The notes under the pieces were generated by a model, which saw only the letters and a list, made by a program, of their open reading frames with translations, searched no databases and was not told the DNA's origin. Of a stretch of DNA of 64,000 nt, positions 18,202 through 34,664 are shown one piece after another. Each line of letters starts with the position of its first letter. The stretch's first letter is position 1. The stretch lies in IMG/VR virus record IMGVR_UViG_3300013368_000005, positions 64,001 to 128,000 of that record; one strand, 5' to 3'. Both the position numbers and the translations under genes were made by a program. The DNA is from a virus (lineage: Duplodnaviria > Caudoviricetes).

Positions 18202-18245
18202 AATTCGTCACCTCCTTTTATTATATTTATGTTATACAAAAAATG

Positions 18246-18279: not shown

Positions 18280-19221
18280 TTAACCAAATCTATTTTCTGA
18301 ATTACATAAACATCTTCCGTTGCAATTACATGTGCCATTTCCTCTGGTGACGCATGAACATAGTTCATAAACATCACATGTACATCCAGATGTTGGGGTT
18401 CTACTCACACACATACAATCTGTATTACATGTACATGCTTCAATTGTTGTTCTACTAACACAGTTACATACATTATCTGCATTACAAGTACAATCTGGAG
18501 AAAATGTTCTATCAACACATAAACAACCATGTTGTATACATATTGTCTCTGCTGTTCTGTCAACACAGGTACAACCAGTATCCGAATTACTAGTGCATTG
18601 AGTGCCTGTTCTAGTGACACATAAGCAATTAGATGGACAATCACCGCCAGTTACTTCCCCTGAAGTTCTTGAGTTACAATCACAATTTGTTATTCCTACT
18701 CTCGATACGCATGTACATAAAATATTAGAATCACATGTGTCAACTGCTGTTCTTGATACACATGAACAAGTATTATCATTACAACTACAAGAATATCCTG
18801 TTCTAGCAACACATGAACATGAGACATTCTCAATACATTCTAATTCTGATGTTCTAGCCACACAACTACATATATTACTTGAACAAATATCGCCTGATGT
18901 TCTTGCAACACAATTACAAGATGTATGAGCATCACAGGAGAGTTCTGAAGTTCTAGTAACGCAATTACATGTAGTATCTACATGTGAATCACATGTTAAT
19001 GGCATTATATTATCCATAATATCCTCTATATCACCTATAGAGACAGTATTATCTTTTAATGCAAAATTATCTATATGAGCTATACAAGTTCCAAGGTTTC
19101 TTTGATTATTCATATCATCTAATAAATCTTTTAATTGACCTAATGAATTATATTGAGGAGGATTTGTATAACCCTTTTTTATTTGTAATAAGTTTTTTAA
19201 TCTTATTAAACTCTTATTCAT
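18280..19221 (-). CDS. Cys-rich CxCVxRT-repeat protein, putative radical SAM modification substrate
   Basis: 47 Cys counted; 12 CxCVxR units plus 2 variants after a ~75-aa Cys-poor N-domain; RBS AGGAGG; near two rSAM genes. Confidence 0.8.
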   Translation of the reverse strand: MNKSLIRLKNLLQIKKGYTNPPQYNSLGQLKDLLDDMNNQRNLGTCIAHIDNFALKDNTVSIGDIEDIMDNIMPLTCDSHVDTTCNCVTRTSELSCDAHTSCNCVARTSGDICSSNICSCVARTSELECIENVSCSCVARTGYSCSCNDNTCSCVSRTAVDTCDSNILCTCVSRVGITNCDCNSRTSGEVTGGDCPSNCLCVTRTGTQCTSNSDTGCTCVDRTAETICIQHGCLCVDRTFSPDCTCNADNVCNCVSRTTIEACTCNTDCMCVSRTPTSGCTCDVYELCSCVTRGNGTCNCNGRCLCNSENRFG

Positions 19222-19237
19222 AATTTATCCTCCTATA

Positions 19238-20011
19238 TTATTTATATAAAATAGTCCATCTAAAGCCACCAACAAAACTTCCTGAATTACCTACAAATAT
19301 ATTTGTAGCATCAGCTCTAATCCATGTTTCGCCTAAATATCCTTGAGGATTTTCAATAGGCATAATCATTATATTTGTTGGTGTAAATGATAATCCATGG
19401 GCTATAGTAACTTCATTATTACTTCCAGCAAAATTTGCTATACCACTTTTATCTGTTATTTTTTGACTTAATTTTTCTGCTATTGAAGTAGCAAAATTAG
19501 GATCTTCTCCTAATGCTTTAGCTAATTCAGATAATGTATTTAATGTCTCAGGCGAAGAATCAATTAAATTAGTAATTGCTGTTTCTACCCCTTCAGTTAT
19601 TTTAGCATCTGTTTCCGTTTTATTATAGTAATCAACTAAAACGTTTGCTATTATCTCTTCTACTGTTAATTGAGGTTTGTTTAGATTAGGTACACCTTTA
19701 AATGCAATAAAATTAAATACTGTATCTATACCTGTAGTCCCCCAATCATTTCCTAAAGACATTATAGCTGTACCTTCTGGATTTATTGTGTATGACGTTT
19801 CAGGAATATATTTACCAGCAATAAATACAAATAATAAATCATAATTAATATTAAAATTTTCTATACCAATATTTACACTAGGTGCAGTTCCTGTAATAGT
19901 AATATTATTTTTTCTATATCCTATAATACCAGTAGCAGCAGCTTTTTCAAATTGCATAAATAAATCATTGCTTATTTCGTGACCTGTTACTTTTCCTCCT
20001 ATACTAGCCAT
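19238..20011 (-). CDS. tail fibre protein
   Basis: Classic fibre motif LIDSSPETLNTLSELAKALGEDPNFAT; C-terminal TIAHGLSFTP beta domain; late motif at 20038-20049. Confidence 0.85.
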   Translation of the reverse strand: MASIGGKVTGHEISNDLFMQFEKAAATGIIGYRKNNITITGTAPSVNIGIENFNINYDLLFVFIAGKYIPETSYTINPEGTAIMSLGNDWGTTGIDTVFNFIAFKGVPNLNKPQLTVEEIIANVLVDYYNKTETDAKITEGVETAITNLIDSSPETLNTLSELAKALGEDPNFATSIAEKLSQKITDKSGIANFAGSNNEVTIAHGLSFTPTNIMIMPIENPQGYLGETWIRADATNIFVGNSGSFVGGFRWTILYK

Positions 20012-20053
20012 ATTATTTCACTCCTTCATTTATATATTATTATAATGTTAAAA

Positions 20054-20077
20054 TTGGGTAGGATTAATCCTACCCAA
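20054..20077 (-). terminator. terminator (perfect 24-bp palindrome)
   Basis: TTGGGTAGGATT|AATCCTACCCAA after the rSAM pair. Confidence 0.75.
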
Positions 20078-20096
20078 CTATACTTATTATATAATA

Positions 20097-21005
20097 TCAT
20101 ATTTGTAATAGTTGTTGATAATAATCATATACTTTTTTTCTCATATTATATACTATGATATTACTCTCTTCTAATGTATGTTGTGTTTTGATAATTTTAT
20201 AATTTAAGTCTTTAGATGATGTATAATCATTACTATTTCTACCATAAGTTTCGCCTATAACTTTACCAGATGAATCTTTAACATATGTTCTGATATCATT
20301 TTTAGGAGGTGGCACTAGAAAATCTGATATTTGTATACCTTCAAGTTTATTTGATATAATATCATGAGCTAAATCATGCATTTCAGACAGATATCTATTT
20401 AAATAATTTTCATCTACAGACATTGTAGATTCTATAATACCTATATTCATTCTACACCTTATGCCTTTTTCATGTAGTTCATGAATACTTTCTCTTAAAA
20501 AAGCTATATTATACGGATGAGTAACAATATGCATATTGTAATTAATACCATTTCTATTTAACTTATCTATATTTTCTATTACTTTATCAAATGTATTCTC
20601 ATGTGTATCCTTAAATACTCTAAGCTGATTGGCAATTTTATTACCGTCTAAACTTATAGAAAATACTATATTTTTATTCTCTTTAAGAAATTTAATGTGT
20701 TCATCTTCTAATATAGTGCCATTAGTTGTAATATATATTGTATTTACTATATTATTAAATGAAGTGTTTCTTTCGGTAAGTTCTATCCATTCATATGCAC
20801 TTTTAATATTATCAAAAGCTAACATTGGTTCTCCACCTAGAAATTCTATATTAAATCTTTTATTATGACCAGCGAAATTGTATATATTATTTATTAAGTC
20901 TTCGATTTCTTCTTTACAATATATAGATTCTTTATCTTTTTCGTAACAATATTTACAATTACAATTACATTCCTTGGTTACATGAATGACATAAGTTTCT
21001 ATCAT
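20097..21005 (-). CDS. radical SAM protein lacking a SPASM domain
   Basis: CNCNCKYC (CxxxCxxC), GGEP, TTNGT, SISLDG; no C-terminal Cys cluster. Confidence 0.9.
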   Translation of the reverse strand: MIETYVIHVTKECNCNCKYCYEKDKESIYCKEEIEDLINNIYNFAGHNKRFNIEFLGGEPMLAFDNIKSAYEWIELTERNTSFNNIVNTIYITTNGTILEDEHIKFLKENKNIVFSISLDGNKIANQLRVFKDTHENTFDKVIENIDKLNRNGINYNMHIVTHPYNIAFLRESIHELHEKGIRCRMNIGIIESTMSVDENYLNRYLSEMHDLAHDIISNKLEGIQISDFLVPPPKNDIRTYVKDSSGKVIGETYGRNSNDYTSSKDLNYKIIKTQHTLEESNIIVYNMRKKVYDYYQQLLQI

Positions 21006-21018
21006 AATTATTCACCAC

Positions 21019-22557
21019 CTAGAGATTTTTTATTATTTGCGTAAGAGCTTCAGGTATCAATTCTGTTACACTAGTATACATATCTTCAATTTTATTATTT
21101 AAGAATTGCTTTTCTAAAATTAATCCAGTATATTCTTCGATAGTTAAACCTTCTTCTTCAGCACGTTCTAATATTTTATTATAAGTAGATTTAGCTAATT
21201 TTATTGTAACAATATTATCTGATTTAATCTCAACTTTATTAGCTGATATCATATCTGCTTTGAGTGTAAACTTATTATTAGTCTCTTCGCTATCTATTAA
21301 ATTAAATTGTGTACCTCTTGAATCACATAAACATGCTGGGTTGTCTGGATTATTTCCTATGGTTGAACTTATTTTATTATCTTTTCTATCTAATACTCCC
21401 AATTTATAATACTCCTCTACTTCTTTTTTTATATATGATTGTATTTCTTTTTCTATTTTACTCATTTGACATCTATACCCTCTAGATACAGATAATATAG
21501 AACCATTTTCACAAAGATTTTCTGCTATACATCTATAACAATGATAGCAGTCACAATCTGGATCATCTATTTTACAACTTAAATCATTATTATCATACTC
21601 TACGAATAATAATCTTTTTTGATCGTCTATACCATCAAATATATTACCTATTATATATTGTCTTTCTGGATCATTAAAATATATATGATGACAAGGTGAA
21701 ATATCTCCATTGGCAGTAATAGTAATAAAACTATTACCAGCTCCACAAGGTTTATTCGAAAAATCACAAGCATTAGATAAACTTCTGTCTAATGGTGCAT
21801 AATTTCTTATTTCATTTAAATTACCTTCCTTTTCTACTCTATTTAATATATAGTCTGCTATTTTGCCTAATTGTTCTTTATACATATTAACATCTTTTTG
21901 AGTCCAATCATTACTATGAATAGGCATAAACCATATATGTTTTAAACCCCAATCTTCTCTAAAGAATTTATAACTTTCAAATAAATATTTCATAGAAAAA
22001 TCATTTAAACATCCATGTATGCTTAAATTATCAGGTTTATTTTTGAAAAGATTTTTCCATTTAGGGATATTCTTTTCTACTATTTGAAAACTACCTTTTT
22101 TATTATGTGTTATTCTAAAAGCATCTTGAACTTTTTGAATACCATCTACAGATAATTGAACAGTAAGATTAACGTTATATATTCCTTTACTAAGTATTCT
22201 TTCTAATTCTGTTGTCAGTATGGTACCATTTGTTATCATATTCATAGACACGGGTATCTTTGTTATACTACTTATAGCACTAGCTTCATCGATTATAAAT
22301 TCCAATATCTCTGGCTCTAATGTTGGCTCTCCTCCAAATAATAATATATTTACCCGTTGCTCTCCAAATCCATTATCTATATTTTTTTTCGCATTGTCAA
22401 ATAAGAATTTAATACCTTGATTAGCAACTTCATAAGACATTTTATTCTTATTATGTTTTTCGAAACAATATGAGCAAGCTAGATTACAATTTTCTGTAAC
22501 TAGAAAACTTGCTGCAGTGGGTTGTAAAATCTTTTTAATGTCGATTATTTTTATCAT
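21019..22557 (-). CDS. radical SAM/SPASM peptide maturase-like enzyme with C-terminal extension
   Basis: CNLACSYC, FGGEP, TNGT, SVDG; SPASM PCGAG...GDISPCH...IGNI...CDCYHCYRC...C; late motif at 22577-22588. Confidence 0.93.
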   Translation of the reverse strand: MIKIIDIKKILQPTAASFLVTENCNLACSYCFEKHNKNKMSYEVANQGIKFLFDNAKKNIDNGFGEQRVNILLFGGEPTLEPEILEFIIDEASAISSITKIPVSMNMITNGTILTTELERILSKGIYNVNLTVQLSVDGIQKVQDAFRITHNKKGSFQIVEKNIPKWKNLFKNKPDNLSIHGCLNDFSMKYLFESYKFFREDWGLKHIWFMPIHSNDWTQKDVNMYKEQLGKIADYILNRVEKEGNLNEIRNYAPLDRSLSNACDFSNKPCGAGNSFITITANGDISPCHHIYFNDPERQYIIGNIFDGIDDQKRLLFVEYDNNDLSCKIDDPDCDCYHCYRCIAENLCENGSILSVSRGYRCQMSKIEKEIQSYIKKEVEEYYKLGVLDRKDNKISSTIGNNPDNPACLCDSRGTQFNLIDSEETNNKFTLKADMISANKVEIKSDNIVTIKLAKSTYNKILERAEEEGLTIEEYTGLILEKQFLNNKIEDMYTSVTELIPEALTQIIKNL

Positions 22558-22611
22558 AAATATCTCCTCCCTTGATTATAATAATGTTTGTCCCATGATA
22601 TAATAATAAAA

Positions 22612-23509: not shown

Positions 23510-25090
23510 TTATATCCAACTTATCCACACATCTCCAGTTTTAGGGCTAGATGGTGCAGTTTTTTGTATCTTTATTTTACTATCTAATGTAGTTATTGTA
23601 TTATTTATAGTATTTACTTTACCATCCATTTCAGTTTTAGTATAATAACCACCAAATTTGTTATTTATAGTGGTTATCTTACCATCTATTTCACCTTTGG
23701 TATAATAATTACTTAGACTATTGGATAAGCTAGATATACTATTATTTATAGTATTTATCTTACTGTCTATATTCGCTTTATTATAATAATTATTAGCAAG
23801 ATTATCAGATAAGCTATCTATACTATTATTTATAGTATTTACTATATTATCTATCTCTAATTTAGTATAATAATCATTAAATTTTTCTATAGCACCAGTT
23901 ATCATATCTTGTATTTCTTTAGATAATGCTTCCCATGGTATAGAGCCAGGATCTATTATAGAGCCATCCACTCCTACTTCTGATATAGGAACGTTAACTA
24001 ATCCTATAATATTAAATACTGTTGGGTTTTCTGGTGTTCCTTCCCATATTTCTGTTTCAGGACATAATATATTAATACCATCTTCTGTAATTGTATAATC
24101 TTCATTTTCTGCTAAAAATACACTATTTTTGAATACTAGTAAAAAGTCAACACCCTTTCTAAATTTAATTCCTATTTCAATATAGTTTACATTTTGTGTT
24201 ATAGCTACAGTATTTTTTCTTGCTACAAATCCTCCATTAATTCCATCTTCTCCAGTAGCTATTACAATCCATCCTGTTCCATCAAACTGCTTTATAGCCT
24301 TAGCAGAAGTATCAAACCAGATGTCTCCTCTTATTCTATCATATGGTTCACTAACACTAACAATATATCTATATCCATTTACCATATCAGCATCTATTAC
24401 GCTATCATCTGATATAATTTGTGCATAATTAAATATATATGTTAATCTTTCATCTTGATTAATTACAGGATATGATTGAGAAAAAATAAGATTATAGTCC
24501 TCTGCAATAACATAATCTTCTGTTTTTACAAGTTCATCATTTCGTAATACAACCATTGGAAATTTAGTAAAATCATAACCAACAAAAGGCACAGGTATTC
24601 TAAATATTCTCTGAGCTGTTCTTTCAACAAAATAATGTTCCATTTGAGTTTTTAACTCAAATCTTTTTCCTTCTTTAATCATATCGTCTAAAACACTTGA
24701 TAATGGGGTACCATCATCATTAAATACTTGGCTTGTTAATGTTCTGGGAGCAGTAGCTATACCATTTTCCTCTATTGTCGCTGGAACTAGTTCTCTTAAT
24801 ATCGCACCACCTAATATAACATCATCTGTTATTCTCATCCAAGAATATTTAAATTTATAAGTCATATTTGTTTCTTTTACAAGATATATCATAGATAAGT
24901 CTGGTGTTTCAATTTGTTCTCTTTCATATTCAGTTGCTAATATGATAATATTTTCAACTAGAACTCTTTCAGCATTGTTATTATCTACGAATATTTCATT
25001 TGTGTCTGTACATTCAATAATCTGACCTGTAATTATAGGTATTTTTACTAATCCAGGTTTTAATGCAGATATATATTTTATTATAGTCAT
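23510..25090 (-). CDS. tail fibre protein
   Basis: YY[TN]Kx[EN]ID repeats x4, GDIWFDT and APSSPKTGDVWI motifs; domains shared with 19238..20011 and 27208..28413; late motif at 25120-25131. Confidence 0.8.
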   Translation of the reverse strand: MTIIKYISALKPGLVKIPIITGQIIECTDTNEIFVDNNNAERVLVENIIILATEYEREQIETPDLSMIYLVKETNMTYKFKYSWMRITDDVILGGAILRELVPATIEENGIATAPRTLTSQVFNDDGTPLSSVLDDMIKEGKRFELKTQMEHYFVERTAQRIFRIPVPFVGYDFTKFPMVVLRNDELVKTEDYVIAEDYNLIFSQSYPVINQDERLTYIFNYAQIISDDSVIDADMVNGYRYIVSVSEPYDRIRGDIWFDTSAKAIKQFDGTGWIVIATGEDGINGGFVARKNTVAITQNVNYIEIGIKFRKGVDFLLVFKNSVFLAENEDYTITEDGINILCPETEIWEGTPENPTVFNIIGLVNVPISEVGVDGSIIDPGSIPWEALSKEIQDMITGAIEKFNDYYTKLEIDNIVNTINNSIDSLSDNLANNYYNKANIDSKINTINNSISSLSNSLSNYYTKGEIDGKITTINNKFGGYYTKTEMDGKVNTINNTITTLDSKIKIQKTAPSSPKTGDVWISWI

Positions 25091-25142
25091 AATAACTCCT
25101 CCTTATTTAGTTTACTTATTATTATTATGTTTGCTGAAGACA

Positions 25143-25176
25143 AATAGAGTGTATATAATATTATATACACTCTATT
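25143..25176 (-). terminator. terminator (perfect 34-bp palindrome)
   Basis: AATAGAGTGTATATAAT|ATTATATACACTCTATT directly after the CXXX gene. Confidence 0.7.
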
Positions 25177-25178
25177 AT

Positions 25179-25895
25179 TTATCTTATAGAATTTAATAGT
25201 TTTATCAAAAATGTCATATCTGTCCGTTTAACTATTTCTGATGTACTCTTCTTTGTAGGTAAAGTTCCTCTTATAAATTGAGTTAATGGTATCATTGCAT
25301 CTATAAATTCATTATAATAATTTATATGCCAGATACAGGTGGAATCTATACCTACAAAAGAAAATGCTGTTAAATACTTATATATCCTAAATTCATTTAT
25401 TTTTTGTCTAAGTGAGATTACATCGTTTATAGTAATGTGTGTTTGTTCACCTATCTTCTTTTCTTGCCATGTAAAATTAGCTGGTCTAGGTTTTTGATCC
25501 TGTTGAATATTACACTGACATGCTATTTGACACATATCTTGACAATAGCTTTGACAAGTAGTTAAACATGCTTTTTCACATGTAAATTGACATAACATTT
25601 GACAATTTTCTTGGCAATTTAATTCACAACCAGTTTGACAAGCCGTTTGACAAACAGTTTGGCAAGTTTGACATCCTTGTCGTTCACATTGGCATACTGA
25701 CAAACATGTTGCTAAGCATGCTTCATTTACTAATTGACAAGCATTTTCACATTGATTGCATTCTGCCTCTATGTCCATACACATACATGTATTCATACAA
25801 GCATCTGAACAACTGCTATTTGCTAAAGTTACGTTATTAGAATCATTCAAGAAGTCAGGAATAGTTATTTCAGTACCTTTTAAAAAATCGCTCAT
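25179..25895 (-). CDS. CXXX-repeat protein fused to a tail-protein-like C-terminal domain; putative rSAM substrate
   Basis: 26 Cys in ~100 aa, including 12 consecutive Cxxx units; start refined to MSDFLK (AGGAGG RBS within the 3' end of the rSAM gene). Confidence 0.82.
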   Translation of the reverse strand: MSDFLKGTEITIPDFLNDSNNVTLANSSCSDACMNTCMCMDIEAECNQCENACQLVNEACLATCLSVCQCERQGCQTCQTVCQTACQTGCELNCQENCQMLCQFTCEKACLTTCQSYCQDMCQIACQCNIQQDQKPRPANFTWQEKKIGEQTHITINDVISLRQKINEFRIYKYLTAFSFVGIDSTCIWHINYYNEFIDAMIPLTQFIRGTLPTKKSTSEIVKRTDMTFLIKLLNSIR

Positions 25896-25900
25896 TTCGA

Positions 25901-27145
25901 TCACCTCCTGTTAAATTGAGTTTTAAATAATTCATTTGACTCACCTGCTAACGTATTCATTATATTTATCGATGTATCTAAGCATATATTATAAAATTTA
26001 CATAATATTTCTGGAACTATTGTTAAATCGCCACAGGAAAAATAATTGTTTATAGAGCAATACCCATCACATATATTATGGAGTCTGCATGTCTTACACC
26101 TTTTTGAATCAGAACACCTGACTTTTTTTACATCAAACGAGTTTATAATTTCCCATCTTTTATCATTATAGATTTCAGTGAATAAATTACCTATTATAAA
26201 TTTATCTCCATTTTCTCTGTTTCCTACCATTTCTTGGCAAGAATATATTTCTCCATCGGGACCTATTGATGCAAATCTATTAGAACCTAATCCGCATCTA
26301 CCATATGCAGGTGCATCTGTAGCATTTCTAAACGATGCAGTTTCATTAAATCTATTAATCTTTTTTATATTACCAAATGCATAATCAAATTGCGAAATAG
26401 ATATATCTCTACCTTCTCTTATTAATTCTATATACCAATTAGCAACTTCATTGATCGCTATTACTAGATCATTAACCTCTTGATTAGTCCATTTAGTAAA
26501 TACATTAACAATAAAAAATATATTATTATATCCTTTTTCTATAGCAAATTTACAATTATGCAATAATTGTTTACAATTATCATGATCTAATGTCATTCTA
26601 AAAGTCATATTAGGATTTAATTTTAGAGCTTTAGGGATATTATTTATTATTAAATCAAATGATGATTTTCCATTATGAAGAGGTCTATTTAAATCTTGTG
26701 TAGGTTTATCTCCATCAATACTGATCATAATTCCAATATTATTATCTTTTATAAATTGTAATCTTTCCTCATTCAATAATGTACCATTGGTCGTCATAGA
26801 TAATTGAAAATTATTATTACATTGCTTTCTAATATATTTAGTCAATGGTACAATTATTTCATCCCATTTGAGCATGGGTTCTCCACCAAAGAAATTGATA
26901 CTAGGAATGTCCCCTTGTATTTTAGAATTTTCTATAATAAAATCTACAGCTCTTTTTGCAGTATCATAAGACATTTCTTTAGCATATTGATCTATAAAAC
27001 AATACTTACATTTAAGATTACATTTTTGTGTAACATTGAGAAATATGGAAGTTATTAATGGTAAGTCTCCATCTTTCCATATTTGCTCTACTGTTCTAAA
27101 ATTATTATTTTCGCATTGTTGATTTACACATTGTTCACAATTCAT
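25901..27145 (-). CDS. radical SAM/SPASM peptide maturase-like enzyme
   Basis: CNLKCKYC, FFGGEP, TTNGT, SIDG; SPASM RCGLG...GEIYSCQ...CKTC...CDGYC...C; start refined to MNCEQC (AAGGTGG RBS). Confidence 0.93.
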   Translation of the reverse strand: MNCEQCVNQQCENNNFRTVEQIWKDGDLPLITSIFLNVTQKCNLKCKYCFIDQYAKEMSYDTAKRAVDFIIENSKIQGDIPSINFFGGEPMLKWDEIIVPLTKYIRKQCNNNFQLSMTTNGTLLNEERLQFIKDNNIGIMISIDGDKPTQDLNRPLHNGKSSFDLIINNIPKALKLNPNMTFRMTLDHDNCKQLLHNCKFAIEKGYNNIFFIVNVFTKWTNQEVNDLVIAINEVANWYIELIREGRDISISQFDYAFGNIKKINRFNETASFRNATDAPAYGRCGLGSNRFASIGPDGEIYSCQEMVGNRENGDKFIIGNLFTEIYNDKRWEIINSFDVKKVRCSDSKRCKTCRLHNICDGYCSINNYFSCGDLTIVPEILCKFYNICLDTSINIMNTLAGESNELFKTQFNRR

Positions 27146-27207: not shown

Positions 27208-28413
27208 TTATGAGAAATAAGCACCACCAAGTGTAATCCATCCAGAAGTTGTTTTTAATTTTATTACTTTATTTATACTATCTATCCATAACTCATTTTC
27301 TAAAGCATTAACAGGTTCCATAGTCTGAATGTAATATGTCGGTTTCTTAGATAGCATGGCATCAACTTCAGATTTTGTATATACCATATTAGTATCTACC
27401 TTAGAAGCTATCTGTTGGATTATAGTGCTTGACATATTGGGATTACTTGCCAACATATTAGAAAGTTGGGTCAAAGTAGCTAAATCTGTTGGGGAAGCAT
27501 TGATTATACTTTGAATTAAATCTTGAGTTTCTTGTTTTGTATAAGTATTATATCCATCAGCCTTTGATGTAAAGTAAGTTATTTGATCTTCGGTAACAAA
27601 TTTGTTATACATATCTTGAACTATACTCTCTGCTCTGATAGCTATATCATCAGCAAGTTTTATTGATGTTATAGATTTATCTGCATAATTTTTGGTTGTA
27701 AGAACTGTATTGGCGTTTAAATCATAAAATCTAGTATAAAAAAATATAAATAATGCAAACTCTCCTTGATTTAGGGCATCATTTGGGTTTTTAATTACTA
27801 AATCATCGCCTTTTACTTCATACTTTCCACTAAAATTATAGCCTCTAACAATTACAGCCATCTTATCTTGAGCCAAATCATAATTAGCTATCGGATATGG
27901 TATTTTTATTATCATCTGTTTATCTCTAGTAGCATGTACATAAATAGATTTACTAGCTGTAACTGCTATTTTATCAATAGCCTCTAAGGATTCTGCTAAT
28001 GTACTTCCATCTTCCATAATTACAACACTTGATAATGTTGTAGGAGCGATACTCTGCTCCATTGCAGCATAAAGTCCTTTTGTAGAATAAGTACTTTGTA
28101 AGAACTCATCTGAAGAGAATGCTGTTGTTAAGAAATCTTGTTGATCTTGTATAGTAAGCCATATTAAACCATCGTGCTTGTATACATTACCAGTTTCTTT
28201 AACATAATAAACTTTAGTCATTGACGTATATTGTAATAGGTCTTTATCAGCTTCGGTTGATAGATATATTATTTCATTTAATATTATACGTTGTTCATCT
28301 GATAGATCAAAAAAAGATTCTTTTGTATCAGTGCAATATATTATTTGATTTGTAAATAATCGAGTATTTCCTAACATATCTCGTATTATTTCTTTATAAC
28401 TAACAAATGACAT
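27208..28413 (-). CDS. tail fibre protein
   Basis: IINASPTDLATLTQLSNML (fibre motif variant), YTKSEVD, ENELWIDS; N-terminus paralogous to 23510..25090; late motif at 28439-28450. Confidence 0.8.
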   Translation of the reverse strand: MSFVSYKEIIRDMLGNTRLFTNQIIYCTDTKESFFDLSDEQRIILNEIIYLSTEADKDLLQYTSMTKVYYVKETGNVYKHDGLIWLTIQDQQDFLTTAFSSDEFLQSTYSTKGLYAAMEQSIAPTTLSSVVIMEDGSTLAESLEAIDKIAVTASKSIYVHATRDKQMIIKIPYPIANYDLAQDKMAVIVRGYNFSGKYEVKGDDLVIKNPNDALNQGEFALFIFFYTRFYDLNANTVLTTKNYADKSITSIKLADDIAIRAESIVQDMYNKFVTEDQITYFTSKADGYNTYTKQETQDLIQSIINASPTDLATLTQLSNMLASNPNMSSTIIQQIASKVDTNMVYTKSEVDAMLSKKPTYYIQTMEPVNALENELWIDSINKVIKLKTTSGWITLGGAYFS

Positions 28414-28473
28414 ATTAAATCCTCCTTTATAAATTAATTAATATTATGTTATCTTTATGGATAGATACAAAGA

Positions 28474-28505
28474 ATAACACTTCTTGAATTAACAAGAAGT
28501 GTTAT
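28474..28505 (-). terminator. intrinsic terminator
   Basis: ATAACACTTCTTG-AATTAA-CAAGAAGTGTTAT. Confidence 0.8.
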
Positions 28506-29040: not shown

Positions 29041-30219
29041 TTAAATAGTTACAGTATACGTATCTGAACTTACGAATGGAATACTAGGTGTATAAATATA
29101 TACTTTATATTCTATAGGTTCATAACTATTAACACCGCTTACTTGAATTAATTGTTTTGTAAAAGTATTTTTAACATCTAAATTTAATGCACTAGATATT
29201 ACACTTGTAATATCTCTTAATGCAGATGGATAAGCAAATATTATCATTGATGTACCAAGTGATATATTTATAGTTAATTTGCTTCCATTAATAGGATCTA
29301 ATACATTTTGAGGTAAAGCTCTAATATTATCACTATCAATAGTGTTTATTGTGGATATTAGACTACCATAGAAGGCTTTTCTTTTACCTATATATTTTAG
29401 TGTAGACGAAAGTGTTCCTGCATTTATTTGACCTATCGGATAATCGTTACCTAAATTATCTTGTTTTATAGCTCCTTGATTATAATCTACAGTAGATGTG
29501 AATTTTAGATTTTCACCATCTGGCACAACTATACTAGTTTGTGAATAAGGTTGGATAACCAAAGTATCTACGACCTTAGTAGTACCTAACGAATCGATTC
29601 TGGATAGACTATATTTAGTTATATCTCCTGCATCATTTTTAATAAATGAACTATTTATAGTTGGAGAAATTGCAGAACCAGATTCTAAAGTTTGTATGCC
29701 TCCTGGTATTATTGATAAAATAGGCATTTTATAAATAGGAGGGATTATTTTTGCCATTTGATTTGCTATTATTGTTTGGATAGGAGTGCCAGATGGTATT
29801 ATATCTCCGTCTTTATATACTCCTATATTTTGTCCTATAACATTTATAGGAACAGTAGTTAATAGATTATCTGCTCCAGTTCCTATACCAGTTTTTATAT
29901 ATTCTCTAATAGCTTCAGCGGTTACTAATCCGACTGTAGATTCATCCATTATATTAGAAATGTCTGGAATTAACTGTTTCCACTCTATCCCATTCCATAT
30001 ATTTACACTTAAATTTGGTAATATATAGATTTTATTTTTACCTGCAACGGTAGGTAACTCATTTACAAATGTTGCGTTTTGTGTATAACACTCATTCCCT
30101 TTATAAATTTCTTTTGTATCATTTATATAGTATAAAGCATTTGGATTTTTAATTTGTATTAATTCGTATTCCGAATGCGTAACATTAAACCATTGAATTA
30201 TATTGGTTATTTCAGCCAT
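29041..30219 (-). CDS. putative tail/structural protein
   Basis: KNPNALYYI and ELPTVAGKNKIYI motifs; beta-rich; late motif at 30238-30249. Confidence 0.65.
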   Translation of the reverse strand: MAEITNIIQWFNVTHSEYELIQIKNPNALYYINDTKEIYKGNECYTQNATFVNELPTVAGKNKIYILPNLSVNIWNGIEWKQLIPDISNIMDESTVGLVTAEAIREYIKTGIGTGADNLLTTVPINVIGQNIGVYKDGDIIPSGTPIQTIIANQMAKIIPPIYKMPILSIIPGGIQTLESGSAISPTINSSFIKNDAGDITKYSLSRIDSLGTTKVVDTLVIQPYSQTSIVVPDGENLKFTSTVDYNQGAIKQDNLGNDYPIGQINAGTLSSTLKYIGKRKAFYGSLISTINTIDSDNIRALPQNVLDPINGSKLTINISLGTSMIIFAYPSALRDITSVISSALNLDVKNTFTKQLIQVSGVNSYEPIEYKVYIYTPSIPFVSSDTYTVTI

Positions 30220-31286: not shown

Positions 31287-31349
31287 AATATTTACCTCCT
31301 TTTAATAATATTTACATAAATGTTCTAAATAATTATAGACTAGCATCTG

Positions 31350-34549: not shown

Positions 34550-34664
34550 AATTTAGCCCTCCTTTTATTTCTTTATGTTTACATTTATGTTCACTATAAG
34601 GGGAAATATATAATTATATATTTTTAAAAGAGTAGTAGTATAGGAATTTATCCTATACTACTTT

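Follow-up and report, generated by a model that had tools for sequence, protein, structure and literature searches.

The stretch analysed here (the window) comprises 64,000 bases, positions 64001-128000 of the 186,590-bp IMG/VR virus record IMGVR_UViG_3300013368_000005, which is estimated to be 75% complete. The phage DNA has a GC content of about 25%, and genes for a phage RNA polymerase beta-subunit, a helicase and a topoisomerase are present in the window. From about 17 to 35 kb the minus strand carries a block of tail-fibre-type genes, inside which lie all three radical S-adenosylmethionine (rSAM) genes of the whole record. The subject of this study is one of these three, which encodes an rSAM/SPASM enzyme, together with the gene that follows it, 25179..25895(-), which encodes a cysteine-repeat protein. 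Our overall reading, to which we give a probability of roughly 55%, is that the latter is a late protein of a large AT-rich phage, with a repeat that would be stapled by the enzyme and a C-terminal domain that would dock it on the tail. The two genes and their parts are as follows.

25901..27145, minus strand: rSAM/SPASM enzyme of 414 amino acids, without a RiPP recognition element (RRE) domain (RiPPs are peptides synthesized by ribosomes and post-translationally modified); Pfam Radical_SAM, E 1.5e-18
25904..25909, minus strand: ribosome-binding site AGGAGG of the Cys-repeat gene, read directly within the last codons of the rSAM gene
25812..25895, minus strand: leader-like segment, residues 1-28, Cys-free by sequence, with the motif I-T-I-P-D-F-L
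25512..25811, minus strand: Cys-repeat region, residues 29-128, mostly C-Q/E-x-x, with 26 Cys and 12 uninterrupted CXXX units; presumed rSAM substrate
25182..25487, minus strand: C-terminal domain, residues 137-238, of the phrog_37329 / Basilisk gp52 type (R-P-x-N-F-x-W ... I-N-E-F-R-x-Y-K ... L-N-S-I), from phmmer and profile searches

Translation of 25179..25895(-) gives a protein of 238 amino acids (P0001) with 27 Cys, 26 of them within residues 29-128 and one in the C-terminal domain. From Cys78 to Cys126, 12 successive spacings measure exactly four residues, and 17 of the 26 repeat cysteines have Gln or Glu as the next residue. This confirms what an earlier, sequence-only reading of the DNA had described, namely 12 CXXX units and 26 Cys in about 100 amino acids behind a leader-like N-terminus of about 28. 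A full-length homologue on another contig (P0002 on L004; 42% identity) keeps all Cys/Gln registers and the synteny, and the CXXX repeat is therefore not a chance feature. On that 1.1-kb contig the upstream frame ends like an rSAM C-terminus, while a hairpin and a fibre gene lie downstream as in the window. The tight coupling to the rSAM gene that had been noted earlier is likewise upheld, with AGGAGG inside the 3′ end of the rSAM gene: the rSAM stop codon TGA occupies 25903..25901 and the ATG of the Cys-repeat gene stands at 25895, leaving a stop-to-start gap of 5 nt and a spacer of 8 nt between the ribosome-binding site and the ATG.

Evidence that the enzyme and the repeat belong together comes from the family defined by the C-terminal domain. 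All fetched loci, with flanks of 5-9 kb, were searched with hidden Markov models (HMMs) for the domain and for the rSAM. Four of the retrieved family members have a Cys-rich front (P0002, P0077, P0115 and P0126). P0077 and P0115 carry repeats of the CSDCSCNTH type, also between immunoglobulin (Ig)-like domains, and P0126 carries CSQS repeats. In the loci of P0077, P0115 and P0126, in a further locus (L044) and in the window, the rSAM gene lies immediately upstream, with an overlap of 8-20 nt or a gap of 5 nt. Counting the window and L044, the rSAM is adjacent in 6 of 6 Cys-rich members and in 0 of 31 Cys-poor ones. The chance of a 5-versus-31 split, calculated by hand, is about 1 in 377,000, a figure that overstates independence since the Cys-rich members fall into only about three lineages. 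The rSAMs of the Cys-rich loci are orthologous (44% and 31% full-length identity), share the RRE-less layout, and each have PapB as the best NCBIfam match. The more similar enzymes are shared by the window and L011, both with Gln-type repeats; with three points only, this tracking of repeat type by enzyme similarity fits a co-evolution of enzyme and repeat. In all repeat variants, about one Gln/Glu, Asp or Asn stands next to each Cys (a ratio near 1:1). In the five Cys-rich family members a hydrophobic-x-hydrophobic-P-[DE] word, with an invariant Pro, stands 15-25 residues N-terminal of the first Cys in every case, which is a weak signal from few sequences.

Given the strict co-occurrence and the translational coupling, the repeat is with high probability the substrate of the enzyme. 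That the Cys repeat is an rSAM target, as had been suggested from the DNA letters, is very probable: an rSAM stands beside every Cys-rich member and beside none of the 31 Cys-poor ones. We are thus confident in proposing that the enzyme would act on the Cys repeat.

What the enzyme would do to the repeat is a separate matter. The enzyme has the CX3CX2C motif (CNLKCKYC) at residues 42-49, a SPASM CX2CX5CX3C motif at 350-363, and further cysteines at 284, 303, 344, 371 and 382. Its top five NCBIfam matches are PapB, nif11-like, ScfB-related, SCIFF and CcpM, with QhpD also among the top ones (139 bits). Among solved structures, CteB (5WGG) is closest, at E 2e-30 over residues 30-384. An N-terminal PqqD-like RRE, which binds the leader peptide, is a feature of PapB, CteB and QhpD (PMC13692751 and established knowledge). 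The alignment with CteB begins only at CteB residue 95, so that CteB's N-terminal RRE is missing in the phage enzyme. Indeed, only 35-40 residues precede the rSAM core, the SCIFF, nif11 and QhpD models align from positions 77-93, and the orthologous rSAMs have about 10 residues before the core. Judged by its sequence, the enzyme is a member of the Cys-directed, thioether-forming branch and an equivalog of no named enzyme. Given where the enzyme falls in its family, its product would most likely be thioether (ranthionine) cross-links, to which we give an even chance.

An alternative is that the Cys repeat is not stapled by thioethers at all and instead binds a metal or an Fe-S cluster, forms disulfides, or undergoes another rSAM-dependent change (formylglycine formation, epimerization or methylation). 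Runs of CxxxC and CxC are classic metal ligands. The enzyme scores below all NCBIfam equivalog cut-offs and has the anaerobic sulfatase maturase among its relatives, and the known acceptor patterns of PapB and SCIFF substrates are absent from the repeat. On the other hand, the five best family matches are all maturases of Cys-directed thioethers or of Cys-rich peptides, gain and loss of the repeat go hand in hand with those of the rSAM, a sign that the two are substrate and enzyme, and the near 1:1 ratio given above fits donor-acceptor pairs. We therefore consider a non-thioether fate of the repeat quite unlikely.

The second question is where the protein goes, and here the C-terminal domain is informative. 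Pfam has no match anywhere in the 238-residue protein. In PHROGs, residues 137-240 (numbered on the 241-residue, GTG-started reading frame) match weakly to the end of phrog_37329. An exhaustive phmmer search with residues 135-238 against 1.84 billion representatives retrieved 14 proteins, nearly all matched at their extreme C-terminus, and a profile built from 12 sequences retrieved 168 proteins from a 5.8-billion-protein database, with P0001 at E 1e-31 over the whole domain of about 101 residues. All 78 aligned members match phrog_37329 (best E 6e-29; positions 494-593 of 594), and none of the 78 matches any Pfam model. The match runs to residue 238 of 238 in our protein, and 76 retrieved members likewise end with the domain. 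The regions N-terminal of it vary, comprising FN3 repeats, Ig-like domains, DUF2927, and C1 or S8 peptidases; most members carry only FN3/Ig domains.

Cultured carriers are confined to Bacillus siphophages: Basilisk gp52, Bak1/6/10, Sophrita gp203, Nate, Thrax1-3 and PBC2 orf199 (a typical family member matches these, for example Sophrita gp203, at E 2e-14). The genes for Basilisk gp52 and Sophrita gp203 lie 3′ of the tail fibre gene and 5′ of the lysis genes, and gp52 has been speculated by its authors to be a tail-associated structural protein (PMC6145125). In metagenomic contigs the family gene lies downstream of the tape-measure and large tail genes. Among the IMG/VR loci, the gene directly upstream encodes a PHROG tail, minor-tail or endopeptidase-tail protein in nine of nine, and further tail genes (DUF6558, Gp80, Mtd_N fibres) follow the family member in several. 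In the window, too, the neighbours of the Cys-repeat gene encode fibre and tail proteins according to PHROGs. The sequence-only reading had likened the domain to tail proteins of Firmicute phages and had taken the fusion as support for display on the virion. The first part stands, through homology to tail-module proteins (E 1e-31), while the second draws on gene position and homology. Since the domain is the sole conserved part of its family and the family adjoins the tail-tip gene, a role in tail docking or assembly is our best guess. From gene position and homology, we lean slightly towards the protein being a part of the virion.

AlphaFold2, run on the 78-sequence alignment, folds the domain into a beta-hairpin plus three helices (predicted local distance difference test score, pLDDT, 89.7; predicted template-modelling score, pTM, 0.84). 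In BFVD and the ESM Atlas, this fold (template-modelling score 0.7-0.8) terminates only uncharacterized proteins of phages or Bacillota. A PDB sequence profile search with the domain gave weak coiled-coil-like matches only, and a trimer prediction with three copies of the domain returned a score of 0.11 (mark 0.42). Peptidase_S74 is an intramolecular chaperone of fibres. One ESM Atlas row fell into an S74 cluster, but this candidate was dropped, as none of the family members matches that Pfam model.

Two further observations concern the surroundings of family members. In several siphophage lineages the gene for the family member is followed directly by one for a conserved protein of 50-60 residues with the pattern N-x-L-x-x-V-S-V-x-G-E (L006:9027-9209, L008:9739-9921, L011:9870-10043, L010:10509-10661 and L013:4826-4978); the window has no such gene. 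This small protein could be a partner or chaperone of the domain-family member. Parts of diversity-generating retroelements (RVT_1 reverse transcriptase, DUF6273, Mtd_N-type fibre) stand a few genes downstream in family-bearing tail modules (L006:12294-15892, L008:12654-16275 and L011:14660-15004).

Within the fibre block, the Cys-repeat and rSAM genes share their surroundings with the following features.

28474..28505, minus strand: 13-bp hairpin from a terminator-like scan, closing the preceding unit and marking the upstream edge of the fibre-rSAM-substrate unit
28439..28450, minus strand: motif AACATAATATTA in the gap 5′ of the fibre gene 27208..28413, a candidate phage promoter by inference only
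27208..28413, minus strand: tail-fibre-type protein of 401 amino acids, encoded at the head of the unit; matches PHROG tail fibre families (phrog_23820, E 9e-15)
25143..25176, minus strand: 15-bp perfect hairpin from the terminator-like scan, directly 3′ of the stop codon of the Cys-repeat gene, at the end of the unit

The two hairpins bracket the fibre, rSAM and Cys-repeat genes, and the three thus look like one unit. The word AACAT-w5-TA recurs on the minus strand at 18222-18233, 20038-20049, 22577-22588, 25120-25131, 28439-28450, 31313-31324 and 34580-34591; AACATwwwwwTA occupies nearly all intergenic gaps of the fibre block, mostly just past a hairpin. The looser pattern AACA-N6-TA is not enriched across the whole window (76 found, 93 expected). 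Fibre proteins have the N-terminal word I-x-C-T-D-T-x-E-x-F in common, three of them in the window (23510-25090, 27208-28413 and 29041-30219) and two on other contigs (L004:1014-1133 and L044:976-2163), and this stretch probably serves a set of alternative fibres as their shared point of attachment. Searches of the gene and the region against cultured phages with tblastn and megablast gave no match at default thresholds. No close relatives were found in IMG/VR or JGI metagenomes by pattern scans that took P0001, P0001 plus P0002, the rSAM and the fibre as queries.

The fibre block holds a second Cys-rich substrate, 18280..19221, whose N-terminal domain had tentatively been suggested to be a distant, permuted version of the C-terminal domain described here. 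This link is rejected: hhalign gives it a probability of 0.3%, and the domain HMM finds one copy only (E 2.4e-27) in the whole phage record. The second substrate has a counterpart on a small myophage-like contig, where a fibre, an rSAM-SPASM enzyme, a Cys protein and a SPASM-less rSAM are encoded in this order (L040:5211-8990). The four genes are also present at 18280-22557 of the window, in a different order, with CxCVxRT units in the second Cys-rich protein. The rSAM-SPASM enzyme of the contig is 52% identical to 21019..22557, and its CxCxSRT protein is homologous to the second substrate (E 2e-30). The existence of this separate cassette suggests that each substrate has its own enzyme or enzymes.

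Beyond the domain family, the enzyme leads to a much wider group. More than 1000 homologues were found at E <= 1e-30, of which the best 119 listed (the enzyme itself excluded) are 43-59% identical. In all five orthologue contexts examined (46-59% identity), an open reading frame with a CQxx repeat lies directly downstream. Orthologues of the enzyme score 178-202 bits against the PapB model, below its cut-off of 340. The closest of these contexts (L044; 59%) has the fibre gene and then the rSAM gene in the same order as the window, and its fibre is homologous to 27208..28413. The frame after this rSAM encodes 481 amino acids, among them 65 Cys, and also ends in the C-terminal domain of the window protein (HMM E 6e-7). 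The contig is partly masked; the masked bases (L044:3890-4000) fall at the expected start of the Cys-repeat gene, where either one long gene or two genes may lie. In a second context (L045; 52%), the rSAM lies among Mtd_N fibre genes and is accompanied by a protein of 197 amino acids and 29 Cys, which ends in fibre-type N-I-G-G-x-W-K repeats and is without the domain. The other three contexts are chromosomal loci of Clostridia, with an orthologous rSAM of 46-51% identity, arranged as follows.

L046:5112-10078: rSAM, then a 929-residue FN3/PG_binding_1 protein with an N-terminal Cys repeat
L047:6973-18690: rSAM, then a 2759-residue Rhs/YD-shell protein with an N-terminal Cys repeat
L048:7955-13329: rSAM, then a Big_2/Peptidase_M23 protein with an N-terminal Cys repeat

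The N-terminal CQxx/CExx repeat of these clostridial proteins is 200-450 amino acids long, and the P0001 repeat aligns pairwise with the N-terminus of the Rhs protein at E 1e-10. A small sigma factor is encoded in all three loci; in scans of L046 and L047, models of the extracytoplasmic function (ECF) type were best, with BotR among the top ones but below its cut-off. Two of the three loci also encode a BhlA-type holin, and one an S-adenosylmethionine synthetase. At L048:10200-11275 the public gene call (266 amino acids, Lys/Val-rich, no Cys) is in the wrong frame and another frame holds a CQxx-type repeat; in metagenome annotations, gene calls for such repeats may frequently be wrong. In a search of 399 genomes from the class to which one bacterial carrier belongs, the rSAM clade was found at E <= 1e-80 in the carrier alone, which indicates a sporadic distribution. 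The clostridial loci seem to represent a class of secreted toxins or lysins, modified by rSAM enzymes, that has yet to be described. Fusion of the repeat to a large protein, counted as unusual by the sequence-only reading, turns out to be nothing exceptional for the enzyme clade, whose orthologues routinely precede large CQxx-fronted proteins, non-phage Rhs, peptidoglycan-binding (PG-binding) and M23 proteins included. As far as sequences tell, the enzyme and the N-terminal repeat behave as a portable module on large extracellular or cell-wall-directed proteins, of which phage tail-module proteins are one class.

These bacterial relatives bear on two other fates of the protein. One is that the modified protein is released at lysis as a free cell-surface factor, its C-terminal domain binding the host cell wall rather than the tail. 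Lysins of Gram-positive phages, after all, have C-terminal wall-binding domains. In the orthologous systems of bacteria the module occurs with PG_binding_1, Peptidase_M23 and Rhs proteins and with a holin, some members of the domain family carry a C1 or S8 peptidase, and some are encoded directly 5′ of the lysis cassette. Strengthened by its PG-binding and holin-linked relatives, release with wall binding is a serious rival to tail docking. We nevertheless regard it as unlikely, because most family members carry FN3/Ig domains only, the tail-tip gene lies directly upstream in each of the nine IMG/VR loci and other tail genes follow in several, and the unit in the window is shared with a fibre gene.

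The other fate is that of a classical RiPP precursor, from which the Cys-rich core would be excised as a small bioactive peptide, leaving the C-terminal domain as a mere carrier. The leader-like N-terminus and an rSAM of the RiPP-maturase branch would suit this. However, Pfam and PHROG scans of the cluster reveal no gene for a protease or an exporter, the Cys stretches of P0077 and P0115 lie between folded domains, those of the bacterial homologues precede proteins of 700-2700 amino acids, and the repeat is followed by a tail-module domain that is conserved. The Cys linkers inside P0077, together with the great length of the bacterial homologues, speak for retention of the repeat in the mature protein instead of its release as a peptide, and we hold the excision of a peptide to be highly improbable.

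Returning to the stapled, tail-docked protein, we propose the following course of events. In a three-part late protein, a short Cys-free leader would precede the 100-residue CQxx repeat, which would be modified in the cytoplasm by the rSAM/SPASM enzyme encoded just upstream, which lacks an RRE and belongs to the PapB/CteB/QhpD branch of thioether-forming enzymes. The enzyme would install many intramolecular links from a Cys sulfur to a side-chain carbon (of the ranthionine type), perhaps on the Gln or Glu that follows almost every Cys, and the repeat would thereby become a covalently stapled segment that resists proteases and reduction. The 102-residue C-terminal domain would then probably dock the protein on the tail or fibre apparatus, a role suggested by its conservation, alone among their parts, in proteins of other Bacillota phages that bear FN3, Ig or peptidase domains and whose genes come immediately after the tail-tip gene.

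Several findings weigh against this proposal. First, the best NCBIfam match of the enzyme, PapB (NF047865), scores 227.8 bits and does not reach the curated cut-off of 340. Second, the Cys-X3-Asp donor/acceptor motif of PapB is absent from the phage substrate, which makes the type of cross-link a guess. Third, the rSAM/CQxx module is not specific to virions, as it also occurs on the clostridial chromosomal Rhs, PG_binding_1 and M23 proteins. Fourth, the single-sequence AlphaFold model of the full-length protein is poor (pLDDT 46). Finally, with respect to docking, Foldseek of the domain model against the PDB gave nothing at E <= 0.001, VIA-align against 48,161 chains gave at best a Z of 6.6, to designed helical proteins and within noise, and the label "docking module", for a domain with no solved relative, reflects the pattern of conservation.

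More broadly, and more tentatively, we suggest that anaerobic Bacillota phages and some clostridial toxin or lysin loci may share a portable device, in which an RRE-less rSAM/SPASM enzyme is paired with an N-terminal Cys module stapled by dozens of thioethers (a protein-scale "RiPP domain"), displayed here on the tail by a hitherto unnamed docking domain. If the stapling is true, nature would offer examples of RiPP chemistry on full-size extracellular proteins in phage tail-module proteins and in related Rhs, PG-binding and M23 proteins of bacteria. The range of substrates of rSAM/SPASM maturases would be widened, a mode of recognition independent of the RRE would become available for study, and it could be explained how phages of anaerobes harden their exposed parts against proteases and reducing conditions. 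If the tail display is true as well, virus particles would carry enzyme-installed covalent cross-links of a type so far known only from peptide antibiotics and two cellular proteins. Apart from these possibilities, an unnamed and confidently foldable C-terminal domain has been defined in hundreds of phage tail-module proteins, and its tail partner is now a concrete question. The definition of this family and the tie of the phage rSAM/Cys repeat to the bacterial Rhs, PG-binding and M23 loci are new here, while rSAM/SPASM systems that cross-link Cys are of a kind already known.

Comparison with such known systems places the phage pair more closely. In full-text literature searches, no account of phage tail proteins modified by an rSAM came to light. 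With PapB/PapA (freyrasin), the phage pair shares an rSAM/SPASM enzyme with CX3CX2C and a full SPASM motif, regularly spaced Cys in the substrate, and adjacency of the two genes. Unlike PapB, however, the phage enzyme is without an RRE, and its substrate is a 238-residue protein with a folded C-terminal domain in a phage tail-fibre setting. Furthermore, the substrates of PapB are built of C-x-x-x-D units, whereas the phage units read C-Q/E-x-x, a new Cys follows at +4, and Asp is rare. CteB/CteA, the SCIFF system (5WGG), shares the core and the SPASM layout, but CteB has the N-terminal RRE that the phage enzyme lacks, and the SCIFF peptide has about 45 residues and six Cys, as opposed to 238 residues with 26 Cys in the repeat.

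The CXXX-repeat system (TIGR04115, TIGR04119) resembles the phage pair in its four-residue Cys period and in an rSAM/SPASM maturase that lacks an RRE and with which the phage enzyme aligns from end to end. In this case, the score against TIGR04115 is 118.2 bits, far below the cut-off of 350, and no second maturase adjoins the Cys-repeat gene. The CXXX-target peptide models do not match P0001, P0002, P0077 or P0126 (NCBIfam up to E 0.01, Pfam up to E 10), nor did any NCBIfam CXXX-target model match the repeats of the bacterial homologues. The label of CXXX-repeat target, given to the protein by the sequence-only reading, is therefore not sustained by the known models.

In QhpD/QhpC and CrpC/CrpA, rSAM enzymes install thioethers (ranthionine) in substrates of protein scale (PMC13692751). 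The likeness lies in an rSAM/SPASM enzyme that cross-links the Cys of a lasting protein with no released peptide, and QhpD is among the top matches of the phage enzyme. QhpD and CrpC use an RRE and make from three to a few links; the phage case has no RRE, up to 26 Cys and a tail-module context. The C-terminal part of the protein, on the other hand, has its counterpart in Basilisk gp52, Sophrita gp203 and PBC2 orf199, with which it shares the domain of about 101 residues and the position of its gene in the tail module. Proteins of the gp52 type, however, have 593 amino acids, with FN3-type domains and two Cys in front and no rSAM neighbour, whereas the phage studied here has, in place of this front, a Cys repeat and an enzyme that goes with it.

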